Of a stretch of 64,000 nucleotides of DNA, positions 9,339-17,604 are shown piece by piece. The notes beneath the pieces were generated by a model. That model was not told the DNA's origin. It did not search any database and was given only the letters and a program-made list of their open reading frames with translations. A program made the translations under genes and the position numbers. The first letter of the stretch is position 1; each line of letters begins with the position of its first letter. Location: positions 416,001-480,000 of the forward strand of contig CAWJKZ010000010.1 of the NCBI GenBank assembly GCA_963843575.1. The letters run 5' to 3'. The stretch is from an uncultured Acidobacteriota bacterium (lineage in GTDB: Bacteria > Acidobacteriota > UBA6911).

Positions 9339-10166
9339 TCAGTGGAAGGATTCGATCGCGAGCATTGGAGTGCCGTCCTTCGTCGATGTCCCTGCCAGCA
9401 GGGTTCTCTTGGGGGGGACCCGCGTCAGCGCGGGTTGCGGAAAGACCGCTATGCGTTTGTGCAGCAGGACCGTCGGGCCGATCACGATGACGGCAGGGGG
9501 CTGGACCTCCTCCCATCCTTCCAAGGCTTCGGCCAGCGTCGTCACCACCGCGCGCTGCGACTCCAGCGTTCCGCTCTCGATGACCGCGACCGGCACCGAG
9601 CCGTCGACACCGTCGTCGAGCAGGAGGCGCCGGATTTCCGGAAAGCCGTCGACGCCCATCAGGATTACCAGGTTTCCGGCACTGCGATAGAGAGCAACAT
9701 AGTCGGGCGTCGAAGCCCCGGCGCACCGGTGCCCCGTCACAACCGCGAAGCTGTCCGAAACACCGCGGAACGTCAGGGGGATGCCGGCCGCAGCCGGCAC
9801 CGCGAGCGCGCTCGTTACCCCCGGAACCACTTCAAAAGCAATGCCTCTCGCGGCGAGGAAAGCTGCTTCCTCGCCCCCGCGCCCGAAAACGAATGGATCT
9901 CCCCCCTTCAGACGCACGACGGTCTTGCCCATTGCGGCGTACCTCGCGAGCTGTTCGTTGATGTGGTCCTGGCAGAGGGCGTGCGCTCCCGGCTTCTTTC
10001 CCGCATAGATCCGTTCGGCTTCGGCCGGAGCCTCCTCGAGCAGCGCAGAACTCACCAGGCGGTCATAGACGATCACGTCGGCCGCGCGGATGCGCTCCAG
10101 GCCGCGCAGCGTGATGAGCCCTGGATCTCCGGGGCCGGCACCCACAATGTACACTTTGCCGTTCAT
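9339..10166 (-). CDS. cobA: Uroporphyrinogen-III C-methyltransferase (SirA/CobA, CysG C-terminal type)
   Basis: VGAGPGDPGLIT, VVRLKGGDPFVFGRGGEE, VPGVTSA. Confidence 0.95.
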   Translation of the reverse strand: MNGKVYIVGAGPGDPGLITLRGLERIRAADVIVYDRLVSSALLEEAPAEAERIYAGKKPGAHALCQDHINEQLARYAAMGKTVVRLKGGDPFVFGRGGEEAAFLAARGIAFEVVPGVTSALAVPAAAGIPLTFRGVSDSFAVVTGHRCAGASTPDYVALYRSAGNLVILMGVDGFPEIRRLLLDDGVDGSVPVAVIESGTLESQRAVVTTLAEALEGWEEVQPPAVIVIGPTVLLHKRIAVFPQPALTRVPPKRTLLAGTSTKDGTPMLAIESFH

Positions 10167-10789
10167 AAGTCCTCTCTCTCCTGGAGATGCTTCAGGACCG
10201 GGGCTTCGCCCTGCATCAGCCGAGGCAACACGTGCTCATCCAGGAGCCGGTACCAGGCCGCGCGCCGGAGACTTGCGTCCGGATAGCGCGCTTTCAGAAA
10301 GCCGCGCAGGCCGGCTAAGTCTTCGAGAACCTCCCCGAAAGGTTCTCCGAGAATGCCGCCCAGACAGTCCCGAATCCTGGAAGCGAACGCCGGGGCGGCA
10401 CCGGAAGTCGATACCGTGACGACGAGGTTGCCGCGGCGCAGCACGGCGGGAAAAATGAAGTCCGAATGCAGGGGATCATCGACGATGTTGACCAGGACGT
10501 TGCGGCTCCGCGCACAATCAAAGATCTCCCGGTTGACCGCGGGGTCGTCGGTCGCCCCCACCACGATCCACATCCCATCGAGGTCGGCAGGGACGAATCC
10601 CCGCCTCTCCCACGACACGCCGACTCCCCGGATCAGCTCCTGCACAGGATCGGTGAGCTGCGGGGCAATCACCCGGACACGAGCACCTCCCTGAAGAAGG
10701 GCGCGGATCTTCATGGCCGCCGCGACGCCCCCGCCCACGACAAGCGCCGACCGTCCGTCGAATTTCAGGTGTACAGGATAAAGATCCAT
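10163..10789 (-). CDS. Precorrin-2 dehydrogenase / sirohydrochlorin ferrochelatase (CysG N-terminal type)
   Basis: YPVHL, Rossmann VVGGG, ATDD, VNIVDDP, VSTSGAAP. ATGA overlap with cobA. Confidence 0.92.
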   Translation of the reverse strand: MDLYPVHLKFDGRSALVVGGGVAAAMKIRALLQGGARVRVIAPQLTDPVQELIRGVGVSWERRGFVPADLDGMWIVVGATDDPAVNREIFDCARSRNVLVNIVDDPLHSDFIFPAVLRRGNLVVTVSTSGAAPAFASRIRDCLGGILGEPFGEVLEDLAGLRGFLKARYPDASLRRAAWYRLLDEHVLPRLMQGEAPVLKHLQEREDL

Positions 10790-10790
10790 A

Positions 10791-10829
10791 AAACGAAAAA
10801 CCCGCCACCTGCTCAGTGGCGGTGGCGGG
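10791..10829 (-). terminator. Intrinsic terminator of attenuator A
   Basis: Minus strand CCCGCCACC-loop-GGTGGCGGG followed by TTTTTCGTTTT, directly before the ATG at 10789. Confidence 0.85.
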
Positions 10830-10858
10830 CTCAGGAGTGTCGTTGATGTGTGCCTGGT

Positions 10859-10939
10859 TTAGACTGCGCCTTCCGCCACCCGGAAACCGCGCAGCGTGCA
10901 ACAACAGGCGCAGATCATGTTCGAGCGGCGGAGAACCAT
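10859..10939 (-). CDS. Cys-rich leader peptide A (MVLRRSNMICACCCTLRGFRVAEGAV), probably leaderless
   Basis: Four Cys in five codons. ATG begins 7 nt after a -10 box. Followed by a terminator upstream of the siroheme genes. Confidence 0.8.
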   Translation of the reverse strand: MVLRRSNMICACCCTLRGFRVAEGAV

Positions 10940-10945
10940 GCGAGA

Positions 10946-10974
10946 TTTATACCGCGCCACCCGTGCCCTGGCAA
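10946..10974 (-). promoter_or_regulatory. Sigma70 promoter for the siroheme operon
   Basis: TTGCCA-N17-TATAAA on the minus strand. Confidence 0.75.
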
Positions 10975-10990
10975 GCCGAATGTGTAGTGT

Positions 10991-11010
10991 ATCTAATCCT
11001 CGGATTAGAT
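10991..11010. promoter_or_regulatory. Palindromic putative operator between the divergent promoters
   Basis: ATCTAATCC-tc-GGATTAGAT, perfect 9-bp inverted repeat. Confidence 0.6.
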
Positions 11011-11015
11011 GATCG

Positions 11016-11044
11016 TTGACATCCGTCGCGGGCGCTGTTAGTCT
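11016..11044 (+). promoter_or_regulatory. Sigma70 promoter for the sulfite reductase operon
   Basis: TTGACA-N17-TAGTCT with an extended -10 TG. Confidence 0.78.
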
Positions 11045-11128
11045 TCGTCCCAGGATATACATTTGGACGGAGAGCGTCCCTTGGCAGCGAAAGCGACTGG
11101 AACCCGGACTGAAAAGAACGCGGCGGGA

Positions 11129-11206
11129 ATGACGGGGTTTGCCTGTTGCTGCATCTGTCGCGTGCCCGGGAACCGGTCTCTCGTCCATGAGACAATTGAG
11201 CCTTAG
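11129..11206 (+). CDS. Cys-rich leader peptide B (MTGFACCCICRVPGNRSLVHETIEP); alternative in-frame TTG start at 11081
   Basis: Four Cys in five codons. Contains GGAACCGG, complementary to the 5' arm of the downstream terminator. Confidence 0.8.
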   Translation: MTGFACCCICRVPGNRSLVHETIEP

Positions 11207-11227
11207 CTCAAGGCCATCATTGGGACG

Positions 11228-11266
11228 AAAAAGCCCCGGTTCCTTCGAAGGAACCGGGGCTTTTTT
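11228..11266 (+). terminator. Intrinsic terminator of attenuator B
   Basis: AAAAAGCCCCGGTTCCT-TCGA-AGGAACCGGGGC-TTTTTT in the 5' leader of the sulfite reductase gene. Confidence 0.92.
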
Positions 11267-11323
11267 ATTTTGGGGCCGTTCAAACCCGAAAGACCAGGGG
11301 CCTTTCAGCTTCGAGGAGACCTG

Positions 11324-13507
11324 ATGCGCGACGCGAGTCTGGAGATTGCCCGGGACCGCGGTTTGGGCCTAACCGACACAGTGCGCGAGGAATTGGATGT
11401 TTACGAAGAGCTGATCCGGAAATACCGCGCCGGCCAGGTCGACGAAACCAAAATGCAGAAACAGCGGCTGCATTTCGGCACGTACGCGCAGCGCCAGGAA
11501 GGCGTGCAGATGCAGCGGATCAAAATCCCGGGCGGGCGCCTCACTTCCTGCCAGCTCGGTCGCCTTGCAGACGCGGCGGATCGTTTCGCCAGCGGGTTCA
11601 TTCACTTCACCACGCGCGAAGACGCGCAGATCTACTATGTCAAGCTCGATGAAGTACCTGCTCTTCTTCGTTTCCTGGCCGAGGCCGGCATCACGACCCG
11701 CGAAGCCTGCGGCAATACCGTCCGCAACATAACCTGCTGCTACCGTTCGGGCACGACCAAAGATGAGGCTTTCCCGGTGGCGCCGTACGCCGAAGCGCTC
11801 TTCCGTTATCTGGTCCGAAACAGGTACAACCAGAATCTCGGGCGCAAGTTCAAGATCACCTTCGAAGGCTGCACCGAAGACCACTCGCACCTGCGAATTC
11901 ACGACATCGGGCTGCTCGCCCGCCAGCGCCCCGATGAACACGGCAACGTCCAACGCGGATTCCGCATCTGGCTCGGGGGCGGCCTCGGGGCGGCTCCGCA
12001 GGTCGGCTTGCTCTATTGCGACTTCCTTCCCGAAGACGAGCTGTTCAACGTGGTCGCCGCAACGCTGCGTCTGTTCGATCGATACGGGGAGCGCAAGGCC
12101 AGGATGAAGGCGCGCATGAAATTCCTCATTCAGACCATGGGATGGGACCGATTCCGCGAGGAACTCGAGGCCGAGCGCATGCGCATGGGACCCGTCGACC
12201 TCCTCCCGGAATATCTCGCGGAAGCGCGCGACGTCGTTCCTCCTCTGACGGAACCGGATGCGGGATTCCGGGTGCTGGAGGGCCGCCTCGACGACGCCTC
12301 CTTTACCAGGTGGGTGCAGGACTCCGCTATCGAACACAGGATCCCGTGGCTTCGCGGCGTGCACGTACGCCTCAAAATGGGGGACATAACCGCGGAACGC
12401 GCGCGCCGTCTGGCGCTTCTGGCGCGCAGATTCTCGGCGGGAGAACTGCGGATCTCCATCGAGCAGAACATCTATTTCCCGTGGGTTTCCGCGGACGCTC
12501 TCCCCGACCTGTACGACGGTCTGGGCGAATTGTCGCTGGCCGATCCGGGCGCGGAGACCGTCGAAGACACGACGACCTGCCCGGGAGCCGATACGTGCAG
12601 GCTTGGCATTGCTTCAGCGAAAGGCCTGGGCAGCGTCATCTCCGAGGCCCTGACCGGCCCGGGGACCGCGCATCGCGAACTTGCCCGTTCGCTGCGTATC
12701 AAGGTCTCCGGCTGTCCCAACGGGTGTGCTCAACACTCGATTGCCGACGTCGGATTCCAGGCAGCGGCACTGAATCACGAAGGTCGTACGGTGCCGGCCT
12801 ATCTCGTGTCGGTGGGAGGAAGAGCAAATCTCGACGACGCCGAGTTCGGCCGGCTGATCGGGCGAATTCCGGCAAGGAACGGGGTGCCGGCCCTGCAGGC
12901 ACTCCTCGATCTGTTTAGTCGAGAGAAACTTCCGAACGAGACCTTCGGCAAGTTTGTGGACCGAGTGGGAGAGACCACTTTGAAAGCGGCGCTCGAGCCG
13001 TTGAAACACGTTCCGGCTTATGCGGAGGACCCGTCGTATTACGAAGACTGGGGACATGAGAACGAGCGTTTCGCCGTGCGGCAGGGTGTCCGGGGCGAAT
13101 GCGCCGGTGCGACAGTCGCAGAAACCGTGCCCACGATCGCGGCGGCGTGGGAATGGCTCGCCCAGGCGCGTGCCTTTTTGTATCACCAGGAGTACAAGTC
13201 GGCAGCCCTGGCCGCTTACGAGGCGGCCGCGTGTGCTGCCCGCGTTCCGCTGTATCAGCGTCTCGTCGATCCATTCACTTCGGATCAGGCTCTTTGGGAA
13301 TTCGAGAACATCTTCGTGCTGTCCGGCATGACGGGGGACGAGTGGAAAGATATCTCGAATTGGTTCGAGAGTCGGAAAAACCGGACGGCGGACGATGGGT
13401 CCGCTCGCGAAATTCTGGGTGGGGCGCAGCGACTGATCGAGTACTGTGCCTCATTCAACGAGGCGTCGCCGAAACCGGTGTCGCCCCCCGCAGGTGCGGG
13501 ACTGTAA
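11324..13507 (+). CDS. Siroheme/4Fe-4S sulfite (nitrite/sulfite family) reductase with C-terminal helical extension
   Basis: MQRIKIPGG, HFTTRED, CGNTVRN, TCPGADTC, SGCPNGC. GAGGAG RBS. Adjacent to cysH and siroheme genes, so sulfite is the likely substrate. Confidence 0.93.
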   Translation: MRDASLEIARDRGLGLTDTVREELDVYEELIRKYRAGQVDETKMQKQRLHFGTYAQRQEGVQMQRIKIPGGRLTSCQLGRLADAADRFASGFIHFTTREDAQIYYVKLDEVPALLRFLAEAGITTREACGNTVRNITCCYRSGTTKDEAFPVAPYAEALFRYLVRNRYNQNLGRKFKITFEGCTEDHSHLRIHDIGLLARQRPDEHGNVQRGFRIWLGGGLGAAPQVGLLYCDFLPEDELFNVVAATLRLFDRYGERKARMKARMKFLIQTMGWDRFREELEAERMRMGPVDLLPEYLAEARDVVPPLTEPDAGFRVLEGRLDDASFTRWVQDSAIEHRIPWLRGVHVRLKMGDITAERARRLALLARRFSAGELRISIEQNIYFPWVSADALPDLYDGLGELSLADPGAETVEDTTTCPGADTCRLGIASAKGLGSVISEALTGPGTAHRELARSLRIKVSGCPNGCAQHSIADVGFQAAALNHEGRTVPAYLVSVGGRANLDDAEFGRLIGRIPARNGVPALQALLDLFSREKLPNETFGKFVDRVGETTLKAALEPLKHVPAYAEDPSYYEDWGHENERFAVRQGVRGECAGATVAETVPTIAAAWEWLAQARAFLYHQEYKSAALAAYEAAACAARVPLYQRLVDPFTSDQALWEFENIFVLSGMTGDEWKDISNWFESRKNRTADDGSAREILGGAQRLIEYCASFNEASPKPVSPPAGAGL

Positions 13508-14292
13508 TGAGTGAATCGCCTACTCCACACGAAATCCGCGAAGAACACCAGGTTCTCGTGGCAGGTCGTGTTTTGACTGGAGAAACTGCCTTGCCCGAAC
13601 AGCAGACGAGCTCGTTGTCGCTCTCCGAAAAAGTCGAGATCAGCAAGACCATCATCGAATATGCCATCAGCAAGCACCCGCGTATTTTTGCCGCGTGCTC
13701 CTTCGGCAAGGATTCCCGAGTGATTGTGGATCTTGCGGCGCAGGTTCGTCCGGAGATCCCGTTCATAGGCATCGACACCGGCTACGAATTCCCGGAAACC
13801 CTGGCGTATGCCGACGAGCTCGTGCGCCAAACCGGCGTACGCTTCCGGTGGGTGCGGCCATCGGACGAAGCGCGCCGCAGGATCGACGAACAGTACGGCG
13901 ATTCGTTCATCAGGAACGATCAGTACAAGTGCTGCGAGATGAAGATCCCGGCGATCGAGGGGATCCTGGCGGAATACGACGCCTGGATCACGGGTCTGCG
14001 GCGCGACGAAACCGAATATCGTAAGAATACGAGACTGATCGAGGCGGGAAGGGTCGCCAAGGTCAATCCCATCGCCTTCTGGAACAAGGAGGACGTCTGG
14101 AACTACATCAGCGGCAATGGTCTGAGTTATCACCCGCTGTATGACCTCGGTTATACCTCTCTCGGCTGCAAGCCCTGCACAACCGGCGGCAGAGTTCGTT
14201 CCGGTGGTGGCAGGCAGGGCCAGTTTGAGAGAGCAGGACGCTTCGCGGGCACATCCAATCAGGGACAGGAGTGTGGACTGCATCTGATCTGA
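13507..14292 (+). CDS. cysH: APS/PAPS reductase (4Fe-4S APS type)
   Basis: CSFGKDS, DTGYEFPET, CC and CxxC ligands, TGLRRDE, terminal ECGLH. TAATG coupling to the upstream gene. Confidence 0.93.
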   Translation: MSESPTPHEIREEHQVLVAGRVLTGETALPEQQTSSLSLSEKVEISKTIIEYAISKHPRIFAACSFGKDSRVIVDLAAQVRPEIPFIGIDTGYEFPETLAYADELVRQTGVRFRWVRPSDEARRRIDEQYGDSFIRNDQYKCCEMKIPAIEGILAEYDAWITGLRRDETEYRKNTRLIEAGRVAKVNPIAFWNKEDVWNYISGNGLSYHPLYDLGYTSLGCKPCTTGGRVRSGGGRQGQFERAGRFAGTSNQGQECGLHLI

Positions 14293-14519: not shown

Positions 14520-15119
14520 TCACTTCAAACTTGGAGCGATGAAGGCGTTCAACAAGGGAAACGACAATCCTCCCACGACGCGCTGCTCCTTGCCCTCCAT
14601 CGTGACGAAAAATGTGGGGGTCGACACCACGTTTCTCTTCTTGCCCAGGGCGATTTCGCGATCAATCGTCTCCTGGATCGCCTGGTCCTTCAGTCTTTCT
14701 CTCACCTTTTCCATTTCGCCCGGCGTAAGAACGCGGGCAACCACGCGATCGATGTTACCGTCGAAAGCCCATTCTGCCTGACAGGTATAGAGATATCTGA
14801 TGACTTTGATGAGCTGCTCTTGACCCAGGCCCGCGCACGCCACAGCGTAAGTGCTTGCGATCCTGGAGGATGCATGCACGGGAAGCGGAAGCTCGTGGAA
14901 AATGACCGCCACCTTGTTGCCGGAAGAGTACCGGTCCAACAGCGGGTCGACAGTGTCGAGATAAAACGTGCGGCAGGCCGGACACTCAAAATCCGAGAAA
15001 ATTTCGATCCTGACAGGGGAGTCGGGCCTGCCCATAAGATAATTCCCGGGAGCGTCGGTGCGGGTCGCTTCCACCGCCGGTTGTACCATGACCAGGAGTG
15101 CCAGCACGATCCAACTCAT
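14520..15119 (-). CDS. DsbA-family thioredoxin-fold oxidoreductase
   Basis: Signal peptide, FSDFECPAC, cis-Pro loop STPTFFV. Confidence 0.9.
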   Translation of the reverse strand: MSWIVLALLVMVQPAVEATRTDAPGNYLMGRPDSPVRIEIFSDFECPACRTFYLDTVDPLLDRYSSGNKVAVIFHELPLPVHASSRIASTYAVACAGLGQEQLIKVIRYLYTCQAEWAFDGNIDRVVARVLTPGEMEKVRERLKDQAIQETIDREIALGKKRNVVSTPTFFVTMEGKEQRVVGGLSFPLLNAFIAPSLK

Positions 15120-15423: not shown

Positions 15424-17229
15424 TCAGGAGCCTGCCGCCTGATCGAGGATGCGCTTCACCGCCGGATTGGGATCGGCGATTTCCCTCCCCGAGCGCACCG
15501 TGATGGTCGGGATCGCGCCGTGTTCTTCGTGAATGCGCATCCGGAGCTGCTCCTCGGCATTGCTGCCTCCAAGCGACGAGTAGCCGAAAGCCCGGCACAG
15601 CCGTCCGAGGAGAAAATCGTTCAGCGGACAGCTGCCGGTCCTGTCGAGCCCCTCGATACTGCCTTGCCAGCTCCGGAAGAGGTGCACCTGCCCGAAGGAC
15701 TGGCCCTGGGCGGTGATTTCGTTCAATCCCTCGCCGCCGACGACCAGCCCGCTGCCGAGACCTGCGATCTCGGCGATCAACCTCTTGATCCCCTCCGTGG
15801 AGGTTGTGCTCTCGACGATGCTGTTGTGGAGGTTGAACGTGTTCAGCGTTACATCGATGAAGACCGATTCCAGCGAAAGCGCGCTGGCGGCGCCGGCGAT
15901 CGCCTCAGACAGAAGGGCCCGCCACATGCTCAGCCCCGGGTGGATCTTCGCCATGACTTTCTTGTCGCGGTGCTCGACTCTGCTCAGGTTGGACTCCGGT
16001 ACCCCGAGCACCTTGCCGTCAACCCAGCTCCATCCCATGATCTTCCTGCTCTCGATATCGCGAAACTGAAAATCCCTGACCATGGGATAGACGGCGTGAC
16101 CGGGGTCGACCTCCAGCGAGTTGAAATGCGGCATGACGTGGAAACCCAGGGACAGGCATTTTGCGATAAACGCCCGCCCGCTTTCGCTCGCTACGTACGT
16201 CGGGTAGTTTTCGTCGTAGTTGTCCGTGCGCCAGCCCGGGAAGTGCAACAGCACCCGGCGGGGCTCGACGCGCTTTGCCAGGGCGTCCAGAATCTGTGGG
16301 TCACCCGGGCACCACGAGATGGCCAGCCGGATGTCGCGCACCCAGGGGCGGCGCGAACGCTCGGCAGCATCGAGTCCGTAAGCCTGCCACAGCCAATCCC
16401 TGTAGCGCTGCACGGGCTTTTTCCAGTCGCCCTGGAAGACGTTGATCCGCCAACCGAGGCCGCCCGCCGCCAGGTTATCGTCGACGGGTCCATACTGTTC
16501 GGTATCGAAAGCGAGCACGTTCGGTCCTGTCCGGTCCCCCGTCAGCAGGGCCTTGTATCGATAGGAGCTGTCCTGCGTGTGGATCCAGAACCCGCCGTTT
16601 TGACCCTGGAGCACAACAAAACCGGCCTCCCAGGCTTGTGGCCAGGTCCAGCGCGAGCCGCGCAGCAAGGGGTCGTCCAATTTGAGTTTGATGCCCTGGA
16701 AGAGAGGCGCCACGAGATACAGGTCGGGACGGATGCCGCCGACAGTCCAGCGACACGCGCGCGCCCCGGGACGTGACGAGTAAGCCGACGGTTCCAGGAC
16801 GAGGTCTCCGGACTCGGGCTCGACAGTCACTGCGATCACGCCGTCGGCGTCCCAGTGGTGGAAGATGATCTCCGCCCTGAGGTCGGACAGTTTTCGGCAT
16901 CCGATGCTGCCGTAACGGTTCTCGTCGATGGAGACGGTCTCGGAACCGGAATAAAGCAGCTGCAGGGCCGGTGCTGCCGGCTGTTGCCCGGTAATCAGGT
17001 ACTCCCCCGTGGCCTTGTTCTTCAGGGAGGTAATCGAGCCCTTGTCGATCACCGCCGCGAGGGTGCCCGTCTCAATGTACAACCGCCCTTCTTTGATTTC
17101 GAGGGACGCCTGTCCAGCGGCGCCTTGCCCGCCCGTGCTCGCGCGCGACCGGTTTGTTGCGTGCACGACGGGGGCCGCGGTAACCGCGGCTGCAACTTCT
17201 TTCAGGAATGTCCTGCGCGAGCTTGACAT
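15424..17229 (-). CDS. Tat-exported glycoside-hydrolase-like protein (DUF6259-like)
   Basis: Tat motif SRRTFLK; aromatic-rich TIM-barrel-like core (YDENYP, GFHVMPHFN, VFIDV, GEG). Confidence 0.65.
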   Translation of the reverse strand: MSSSRRTFLKEVAAAVTAAPVVHATNRSRASTGGQGAAGQASLEIKEGRLYIETGTLAAVIDKGSITSLKNKATGEYLITGQQPAAPALQLLYSGSETVSIDENRYGSIGCRKLSDLRAEIIFHHWDADGVIAVTVEPESGDLVLEPSAYSSRPGARACRWTVGGIRPDLYLVAPLFQGIKLKLDDPLLRGSRWTWPQAWEAGFVVLQGQNGGFWIHTQDSSYRYKALLTGDRTGPNVLAFDTEQYGPVDDNLAAGGLGWRINVFQGDWKKPVQRYRDWLWQAYGLDAAERSRRPWVRDIRLAISWCPGDPQILDALAKRVEPRRVLLHFPGWRTDNYDENYPTYVASESGRAFIAKCLSLGFHVMPHFNSLEVDPGHAVYPMVRDFQFRDIESRKIMGWSWVDGKVLGVPESNLSRVEHRDKKVMAKIHPGLSMWRALLSEAIAGAASALSLESVFIDVTLNTFNLHNSIVESTTSTEGIKRLIAEIAGLGSGLVVGGEGLNEITAQGQSFGQVHLFRSWQGSIEGLDRTGSCPLNDFLLGRLCRAFGYSSLGGSNAEEQLRMRIHEEHGAIPTITVRSGREIADPNPAVKRILDQAAGS

Positions 17230-17604
17230 AACCGACCTCCTGAGTGATCCGGTCCACATCAACCGCGATTGTACGCCGGCAACGGCGCTCGTGATTGTCG
17301 CTCACTGATCCCTGAAAAACGAGAACTCTGTCGATCGGCGGTTTTTTGGCCGCGGAACTCCCTCCCCGTACGCCGACCTGCGCCGACCCGGGCATTTCGT
17401 CGGCGCTTCCTCGGCGTCCCTCGGCGTGCGGGCTGCTGAACGAAACAGACCGGAGGACTGGGTCGAGACTTGGGTGTATCTGGAGACATGGCCTATGCCG
17501 GTGATTCGCCCGAGTTCAGGTTATACTTGGGCTACCCTTTTCGCGGCCTCCACGGCACGCGCCGGAAGCGGCCGGGGAAAGCCTCCGATGCAGGTCGAGG
17601 GCTT

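Follow-up and report, generated by a model that had tools for sequence, protein, structure and literature searches.

A 64,000-nucleotide (nt) window from the genome of an uncultured Acidobacteriota bacterium (positions 416,001 to 480,000 of contig CAWJKZ010000010.1, assembly GCA_963843575.1) contains two divergent sulfur operons, sirC-cobA on the minus strand and sir-cysH on the plus strand, separated by a 535-nt gap (10790-11323), and the question raised by this locus is how both operons are controlled from the gap that they share. As judged from Pfam matches and pathway knowledge, the genes on the two sides serve sulfide production for cysteine (Cys) and the supply of the cofactor of the sulfite reductase Sir; that cofactor is siroheme, which is synthesized by the products of sirC and cobA. 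We found that the gap houses two mirror-image leaders. As described in the original prediction, the arms are symmetric, each with a short open reading frame (sORF) containing four Cys codons in five, an 8-nt strand, a terminator and then the sulfur genes, and all of these were present in the sequence. We consider it likely that each arm is an independent leader-peptide transcription attenuator reading the supply of charged tRNA-Cys. The trp/his-type attenuation that had been proposed for this locus is favoured by the comparative data, because the Cys codons, the strand and the terminator are conserved in relatives while the peptides drift. The sequence elements, their conservation and their geometry were observed directly, and their coordinates within the window are collected in Table 1.

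In both leaders the 8-nt strand copies the start of the terminator 3' arm, and its pairing partner would therefore be the loop-proximal portion of the 5' arm, which the real 3' arm needs first. On the plus strand GGAACCGG is complementary to CCGGTTCC (11236-11243), which lies within the terminator 5' arm, and on the minus strand GGTGGCGG is complementary to CCGCCACC (10828..10821). Both hairpins are canonical terminators with 10-12 GC-rich pairs followed by 5 or 6 T, and both were called by a terminator scan (4 sites versus 1.2 expected). The two leaders were alike only around the Cys codons, at about 13 of 15 nt, in agreement with what had been noted before. Cysteine accounts for 1.1% of residues in long frames genome-wide, and of the Cys clusters (defined as at least 3 Cys in 5 codons) that precede strict terminators in the genome, those of the two leaders are the tightest to lie in a short frame with a start codon and with a gene start following. 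TGT makes up 4 of the 8 leader Cys codons versus 22% in long frames, numbers too small for inference.

Table 1. Features of the divergent sir/sirC region and the genes next to it (positions within the 64,000-nt window).
Feature	Position	Strand	Basis or remark
sir-leader promoter	11016..11044	+	-35 TTGACA 11016-11021, 17-nt spacer, -10 TAGTCT 11039-11044
sir leader sORF, 25 codons + TAG, MTGFACCCICRVPGNRSLVHETIEP	11129..11206	+	ATG open reading frame; homologous sORFs in relatives
Candidate regulatory Cys codons TGT TGC TGC ATC TGT (4 Cys in 5)	11144..11158	+	read from sequence
Candidate antiterminator strand GGAACCGG	11169..11176	+	copies first 8 nt of terminator 3' arm; duplex -16.9 kcal/mol
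Middle hairpin enclosing sORF stop codon (11204-11206)	11181..11228	+	predicted helices 11181-11190/11217-11228 and 11196-11201/11206-11211
sir-leader intrinsic terminator	11233..11271	+	stem 11233-11260, 12 bp, -24.5 kcal/mol; T-run 11261-11271
-35 box TTGCCA, sirC-leader promoter	10969..10974	-	17-nt spacer to -10; identical in congener G001
-10 box TATAAA, sirC-leader promoter	10946..10951	-	read from sequence
sirC leader sORF, 26 codons + TAA, MVLRRSNMICACCCTLRGFRVAEGAV	10859..10939	-	ATG open reading frame; orthologous sORFs in G001, G008, G009
Region 1 UCCGCCGCUCG, codons 3-6, candidate anti-antiterminator	10922..10932	-	11-bp helix with region 2 in predicted ribosome-free minimum free energy fold
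Candidate regulatory Cys codons TGC GCC TGT TGT TGC (4 Cys in 5)	10898..10912	-	read from sequence
Region 2, candidate antiterminator strand GGTGGCGG	10873..10880	-	copies first 8 nt of terminator 3' arm; duplex -19.0 kcal/mol
sirC-leader intrinsic terminator	10790..10830	-	stem 10830..10801, -21.1 kcal/mol; T-run 10800..10790
Perfect 9+9 palindrome ATCTAATCC-TC-GGATTAGAT	10991..11010		between divergent -35 boxes; outside the RNA
sir, assimilatory sulfite reductase, 727 aa	11324..13507	+	Pfam NIR_SIR 3.7e-52, NIR_SIR_ferr 2.5e-32
cysH-type (phospho)adenosine phosphosulfate ((P)APS) reductase	13507..14292	+	Pfam PAPS_reduct 2.9e-43
sirC-like, precorrin-2 dehydrogenase/sirohydrochlorin ferrochelatase, CysG N-terminal type	10163..10789	-	Pfam NAD_binding_7 1.1e-30, Sirohm_synth_M, CysG_dimeriser
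cobA-type uroporphyrinogen-III methyltransferase	9339..10166	-	Pfam TP_methylase 1.2e-52

To describe conservation we refer to the genome under study as G000, to its congener as G001, to genomes of relatives by other G numbers and to loci by L numbers. The sir-type leader was surveyed in 41 related genomes, 17 of which had a Sir match. One genome included in this survey and in the pattern searches, G034, is unpublished, and none of the conclusions depends on it. A Cys-cluster sORF was observed on the same strand upstream of sir in 5/5 close orthologues (L001-L005; 62 to 100% identity), and the leader was found in all six family genomes with a true sir (L001-L005 and G011, which is L010). Among five more distant sir loci the sORF was observed in L009 and L010; it was not found upstream of sir in L006, L008 or the paralogue L018, and L007 had a match on the reverse strand only, which was discarded. 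Also discarded was a 'twin' on the reverse strand ahead of sir in G037 (L009), as it falls in the region of a divergent oxidoreductase-like frame. Orthologous sORFs of the sir type were identified in G001, G008, G009, G003, L038, L039, L207, L208 and L248, with L207, L208 and L248 representing three further leaders from metagenomes.

An alignment of seven sir-type leaders, from four genera of the family and two Blastocatellia contigs, showed the antiterminator strand GG[AG]ACCGG to be invariant and the terminator to be conserved in 7/7. The strand begins 10 nt after the last Cys codon in this genus and 16 nt after it in the other sir-type leaders, and the distance from strand to terminator 5' arm is 53 to 63 nt in all seven. 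The 5' arm, GCCCCGGTTCC, is invariant save for one C-to-T change in L039, and the 3' arm varies with pairing always kept, through G-U changes and, in L039, a double change from C-G to U-A. The 5' arm is expected to be the more constrained of the two because it must pair with two partners, as was observed. In L208 the strand lies in another frame of the sORF (GGA ACC GGC, Gly-Thr-Gly, versus GGG AAC CGG elsewhere), which points to selection on the RNA and not on a 'GNRS' peptide. The L208 leader (L208:692-840), in which GGAACCGG is frame-shifted, also has its ATG only some 5 nt beyond the transcription start predicted from TTGACA-N18-TATGTT. A search for GGRACCGG-N40-75-CCYCGGTTCC in 137 genomes of the class returned only the five known sir-type leaders together with matches at the level of the reversed control.

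For the sirC-type leader, 51 family genomes were surveyed, of which 31 had a SirC match (E up to 1e-10), and 30 loci were examined. The leader was observed in G000, G001, G008 and G009, four of the five closest orthologues, and precedes sirC in all four genomes in which a close sirC orthologue is the first gene of a separate operon; in the fifth closest, G003, and in G011, sirC directly follows sir in one operon. None of the 25 distant sirC homologues (38% identity or less) had a Cys sORF with a terminator. In 4/4 leaders the motif GGTGGC is invariant, separated on its 5' side by 17 to 20 nt from the last Cys codon and on its 3' side by 13 nt from the stop codon, and the terminator is conserved and nearly identical, with 9 to 11 nt between its stem and the sirC ATG (11 nt in G000). 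The conservation in relatives that had been suggested earlier as a check was found for the sir-type leader in 6/6 genomes and for the sirC-type leader in 4/4. The sirC sORFs of G000 and G001 differ at five codons, all of the differences being non-synonymous and none of them in a Cys codon, and drift that spares the Cys codons is the pattern of a leader peptide and not of a functional protein. The pattern GGTGGCRG-N35-70-CCCGCCACC recovered all four known sirC leaders from the 137 genomes. In the 32 matches scanned (loci L176-L205 with L197 left out; the G008 sirC leader was read separately), a Cys cluster, a terminator stem and a T-run occurred together only in three sirC leaders, while two other matches had a Cys cluster and no terminator.

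The preference for cysteine was examined by surveying all amino acids ahead of 79 sir homologues in public genomes (80 loci, one short-flanked), over at most 700 nt each, using as the target a short frame in which one amino acid takes at least three of five codons, with a hairpin and a T-run behind it. Cysteine topped the survey with 14/79 loci, followed by leucine (7), arginine (5) and valine (5), and two-codon amino acids reached at most 1. The reverse strand gave 0/79 for cysteine. The 14 loci comprised seven of the ten best-scoring homologues (Pyrinomonadaceae/Blastocatellia), two Terriglobia, one Solibacteraceae, two other Acidobacteria, one Balneolaceae and one Flammeovirgaceae. Within 700 nt of sir no Cys leader was observed in 34 Nitrospira-group loci or in 8 Bryobacterales loci. 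The leaders of L091 and L106 lie 0.9 to 1.4 kb upstream of sir, leaving room for an intervening gene. The T-run terminator design recurs across all leader families seen, and the Terriglobia-type leaders L045, L047 and L048 have the same design in unrelated sequence, with duplex shuffle p-values of 0.003 to 0.007. These three, from Terriglobia/Solibacteraceae contigs, also include extreme leaders, e.g. MCCCCCCVPIRRVGKAAP, MCCCCCCCV and one sORF with 11 Cys.

The predicted folds differ between the arms. The minus arm has the full four-region layout, with predicted alternative pairings 1:2, 2:3 and 3:4, and its Cys codons are predicted to occupy the 39-nt loop of the 1:2 helix. G008 keeps this helix through a change on both sides (UCCGCC/GGCGGA to UCUGCC/GGCAGA), and RNAalifold on the sirC-type leaders also proposes that the Cys codons themselves pair with the antiterminator strand. 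On spacing alone, with TATAAA 7 nt ahead of its ATG, the minus sORF is possibly leaderless. In the plus arm the ATG lies about 78 nt after the predicted transcription start, so this sORF is not leaderless. Here a long imperfect hairpin (11095-11178) is predicted to contain the 5' half of the sORF and to sequester the antiterminator strand in its base, and the middle hairpin would juxtapose the antiterminator strand and the terminator 5' arm.

From these elements we infer that the sORFs are translated, that ribosomes stall within them, and that a switch answers to cysteine in the following way. Transcription would start at a constitutive-looking promoter and a ribosome would translate the short frame. 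With ample Cys-tRNA the ribosome would pass the four Cys codons and reach the stop codon. On the minus arm, where the stop lies 13 nt past the strand, it would then cover the antiterminator strand; on the plus arm it would sit between strand and terminator, as a wedge in the loop that the antiterminator has to close. In either case the terminator would form and RNA polymerase would halt short of sirC or sir. Under a shortage of Cys-tRNA, the ribosome would stall on the Cys codons and keep region 1 off the antiterminator strand; on the minus arm it would fill the 39-nt loop, so that 1:2 could not close and 2:3 would form. The strand, just past the leading edge of the ribosome, would pair with the loop-proximal 8 nt of the 5' arm once these are transcribed, no terminator would form and the operon would be transcribed. 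The spacing of the strand after the last Cys codon (10 or 16 nt in sir-type leaders, 17 to 20 nt in sirC-type leaders) suits a ribosome stalled on the Cys codons. As the same signal would act on both leaders, Sir and APS reductase would rise together with the siroheme enzymes without a shared protein regulator.

We modelled this switch by folding each leader transcript as far as the terminator loop, with a 26-nt mask standing for the ribosome; in this model the transcription starts are guessed and helices may close around the ribosome. For the G000 sir leader, the expected number of antiterminator pairs out of 8 was 0.6 with no ribosome, 0.6 with the A site on the first Cys codon, 2.7 at the second, 7.7 at the third, 1.4 at the fourth and 0.0 at the stop codon. 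For the G000 sirC leader it was 0.0 with no ribosome, 5.1 to 5.7 at the first three Cys codons, and 0.0 both at the fourth and at the stop. Results for G001 were similar, and in the sirC leaders of G008 and G009 a stalled mask favoured the antiterminator while a mask at the stop, or no ribosome, favoured the terminator. Profiles computed codon by codon peaked at and just before the Cys codons.

Several results weigh against attenuation of this kind. The plus sORF has a weak Shine-Dalgarno sequence (GGCGGGA), and its stop codon lies 27 nt beyond the antiterminator strand, so a terminating ribosome would leave the strand uncovered. For the plus arm, no conserved region 1 was found beyond the genus, and RNAalifold on the sir-type alignment found the terminator only. 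The duplex shuffle test gave only modest single-sequence p-values, 0.07 for the plus leader and 0.02 for the minus leader; of 23 leaders drawn from several families, 13 had p-values no higher than 0.1 and 8 no higher than 0.05, and five leader families had no supported duplex under the automatic definition. It is from conservation that the case for the leaders draws its strength. True covariation, which the original prediction had looked to as a check, was almost absent from the antiterminator helix (invariant or with G-U changes only). In the mask model an A site on the last Cys codon gave no predicted antiterminator in either arm (1.4/8 and 0.0/8), which we ascribe to the model letting the helix close around the ribosome, and one arginine codon of the minus arm also gave 6.9/8. 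For the sir leaders of G009, G003, L038 and L039, with cruder 5' ends, the antiterminator was predicted in every state including the stop, and in these, on the model, only timing or steric hindrance could discriminate.

The distribution among metagenomes is a further point on this side, as 33 of 45 close metagenome relatives (flank of at least 250 nt) had no leader within the flank (900 nt), and 12 carried the leader. In 29 of these 33 a same-strand open frame reaches within 80 nt of the Sir match, a count to be taken as an upper estimate because high G+C makes long spurious frames. Three such upstream frames were checked and all were TP_methylase (cobA); on a fourth metagenome contig an APS kinase ends 228 nt before the Sir match. 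Since sir is not the first gene in those contigs, the 900-nt flank is too short to judge them.

Other explanations of the locus were weighed against attenuation by termination. The Cys sORFs might sense Cys-tRNA with an output that is not, or not only, intrinsic termination, through changed translation initiation of the next gene, the way mycobacterial polycysteine sORFs work, or changed access of Rho; for sirC the hairpin would gate ribosome binding and be opened by the antiterminator fold. The sirC ATG directly follows the T-run in 4/4 leaders and has no Shine-Dalgarno sequence, as such a device would have it, and the minus sORF is possibly leaderless, like the mycobacterial sORFs (10.1101/834739). 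Both hairpins are nevertheless canonical terminators with T-runs, a design that recurs in every leader family, and the sir ATG (11324) lies 58 nt past the T-run with its own GGAGGAG, which is unpaired with the leader in the predicted fold, so we consider this explanation improbable. At the minus arm itself, the T-run of the terminator abuts the sirC ATG (10789), and on read-through transcripts the hairpin may act as a further gate, on the initiation of translation.

Still less probable, in our judgement, is that the sORFs encode functional Cys-rich peptides (metal or redox) or that the leaders are stand-alone small RNAs, with a protein regulating sir and sirC, for example through the palindrome. 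If ended by the terminators, the transcripts would measure about 150 nt on the minus strand and 220 nt on the plus strand, the lengths of the folded leaders, and the perfect 9+9 palindrome between the promoters could serve as a protein operator for both. This palindrome occurs once in the 6.7-Mb genome, is represented at the same place in G001 by the weaker CTAATC-CTAC-GATTAG and was not seen in the other genera. The peptides, for their part, are unconserved outside the Cys codons and differ in length and sequence across genera, with 5/5 congener differences non-synonymous; the non-Cys codons that are conserved are those containing the RNA strand, which lies in another frame in L208. A comparison of four translations (plus-arm queries without the last 3 residues, minus-arm sORF whole) with NCBIfam, which includes e.g. 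the leader model NF042934, gave no family at E up to 10. The last explanation, that Cys clusters and GC-rich hairpins are common at 64% G+C and the symmetry is accidental, we regard as very improbable indeed. It can point to 645 Cys clusters in short frames genome-wide and to the single-sequence duplex p-values, and against it stand orthologous conservation across several genera, enrichment that is specific to cysteine and absent from the reverse strand, and the pattern controls in 137 genomes, in which, among the matches scanned or read, only the four sirC leaders combined a Cys cluster with a terminator.

The promoters had been called near-consensus sigma-70 promoters. The boxes and their 17-nt spacers are present, and TTGACA-N17/18-TAnnnT was found 5' of 7/7 sir-type leaders; the term near-consensus is generous, as a sigma-70 scan of 10600-11500 called no promoter and the plus -10 box agrees with the consensus at 3/6 positions. 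A search of 4227 Rfam models against 10000-12000 (E up to 10) gave 26 matches, none near the gathering score, the best being PyrG_leader with 30 bits versus a gathering score of 65 and covering the terminator only.

The extent of Cys attenuation in G000 was examined genome-wide. There were 544 strict terminators and 31 entries with a Cys cluster within the preceding 160 nt. Six other candidates were inspected and none had a comparable context, and strict and loose scans together gave no further convincing Cys attenuator in this genome. No Cys leader was observed in the 500 nt upstream of sat, cysK, the cysK paralogue or the second PAPS_reduct gene. As read from the sequence, the Cys attenuation 'regulon' that the original prediction had envisaged is, in G000, the sulfite-reduction step and its cofactor, just two operons. 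Several GGCGCCGAGGCGCC-like inverted repeats were observed in the 500 nt upstream of the sat-like gene (G000:C11, match at 156542), and these may be another regulatory or repeat element.

The two leader types lie on different contigs in G008 and G009, so that of the genomes searched only those of this genus have them back to back. In relatives, cobA immediately precedes sir on the same strand, as on three metagenome contigs, or sirC immediately follows sir, as in G003 and G011, which suggests that the siroheme genes and sir once formed one operon that later came apart, with a Cys leader either retained or acquired by each half.

Classical attenuators such as trpL, hisL, leuL, thrL, pheL and ilvL of E. 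coli and Salmonella share with the present leaders a short frame with a run of codons for the operon's own amino acid, a terminator before the first structural gene and, on the proposed reading, four RNA regions whose exclusive 1:2, 2:3 and 3:4 pairings would be set by the position of the ribosome. Unlike these listed leaders, those described here concern cysteine, occur in Acidobacteriota and include one operon that makes a cofactor, siroheme, and not an amino acid. The plus stop codon also lies inside the loop closed by the antiterminator and not beside region 2, the minus sORF is perhaps leaderless, and no Rfam model matches at its gathering score.

Cysteine leaders have been reported in other bacteria. 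According to Canestrari et al. 2020 (10.1101/834739), mycobacterial polycysteine leaderless sORFs act by unmasking the Shine-Dalgarno sequence of the next gene, and the authors contrast their tested locus with terminator-based attenuation. Common to these and to our leaders are Cys runs in unannotated sORFs before cysteine-related operons and, on our reading of the locus, the coordination of several loci by ribosome pausing alone (the authors' 'ribulon'); unlike what is described there, both of our leaders have canonical terminators and the plus leader has a 5' untranslated region of about 78 nt. Cys leader peptides were also predicted before cys operons of Mycobacterium and Propionibacterium acnes and before cbs of Bifidobacterium longum by Seliverstov et al. 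2005 (PMC1262725), who found no conserved terminator hairpins and proposed Rho-dependent termination, in contrast to the conserved terminators and antiterminator strands observed here. A further published design is uORFC-8-2 before cysS of Rhodobacterales, with two tandem Cys codons, two stems and an intrinsic terminator, which Brewer et al. 2021 (PMC8632094) read as ribosome-mediated attenuation sensing Cys-tRNA. It differs, as described there, in controlling a tRNA synthetase, in having two Cys codons versus four, in its occurrence in Alphaproteobacteria and in belonging to an unrelated sequence family. The original prediction had placed published Cys leaders in Actinobacteria and outside classical terminator switching; for the actinobacterial leaders this agrees with the papers cited, and uORFC-8-2 contradicts the general absence of classical terminators (PMC8632094).

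Our literature search, with most subscription journals and supplements outside it, gave no Cys leader before sulfite reductase or siroheme genes, nor one in Acidobacteriota or Bacteroidota; flavobacterial and Bacteroides transcriptome papers mention leader peptides, with the details in supplements. The mechanism is thus classical, and the instance (cysteine, sir and siroheme genes, Acidobacteriota, twin layout) appears undescribed in the literature searched. A much wider proposal is a tentative one, which we think rather unlikely to hold as a whole: that throughout Acidobacteriota and in some other little-studied phyla sulfite reduction is controlled mainly by Cys-tRNA leader-terminator switches that arose again and again, and not by a CysB-type protein; that in this genus enzyme and cofactor are coordinated solely by ribosome speed at Cys codons, as a terminator-based 'ribulon'; and that the siroheme leader is leaderless, with a terminator that gates sirC translation.

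In enterobacteria, cysteine-linked control runs through O-acetylserine and CysB. Acidobacteriota form an abundant soil phylum of which few strains are in culture and of whose gene regulation, to our knowledge, almost nothing is known; here a classical, protein-free mechanism would be readable from sequence alone. If each arm is a terminator-based attenuator, sulfide production would be matched to cysteine demand by tRNA charging and not by O-acetylserine and CysB, and the apo-enzyme and its siroheme cofactor would be kept in step after the split of the ancestral operon. Cysteine, with terminators, would join the amino acids sensed by leader peptides. A Cys-run sORF with a terminator before sir or sirC would also give an annotation rule for intergenic regions, and the leaders would offer compact cysteine-responsive switches for reporter systems.

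The genes of the two operons are tightly packed, with the cysH ATG overlapping the sir stop codon (TAATG) and cobA overlapping sirC by 4 nt. The cysH product has the motifs CC...CxxC and ECGLH, which we take to resemble the iron-sulfur type of APS reductase. The closest Sir homologues in public contigs are from Pyrinomonadaceae or Blastocatellia. The C-terminal approximately 130 aa of Sir (residues ~600-727; window 13100-13507) had no Pfam match, yet are common to the aligned relatives. The match to sir of G001 (L002) contains one in-frame TGA, representing a sequencing error, a pseudogene or recoding. Downstream of cysH and on the opposite strand, a thioredoxin/DsbA-like gene (14520-15119, minus; Thioredoxin_4 7.5e-21) and a gene for a DUF6259 protein (15424-17262, minus) delimit the end of the sir-cysH operon.

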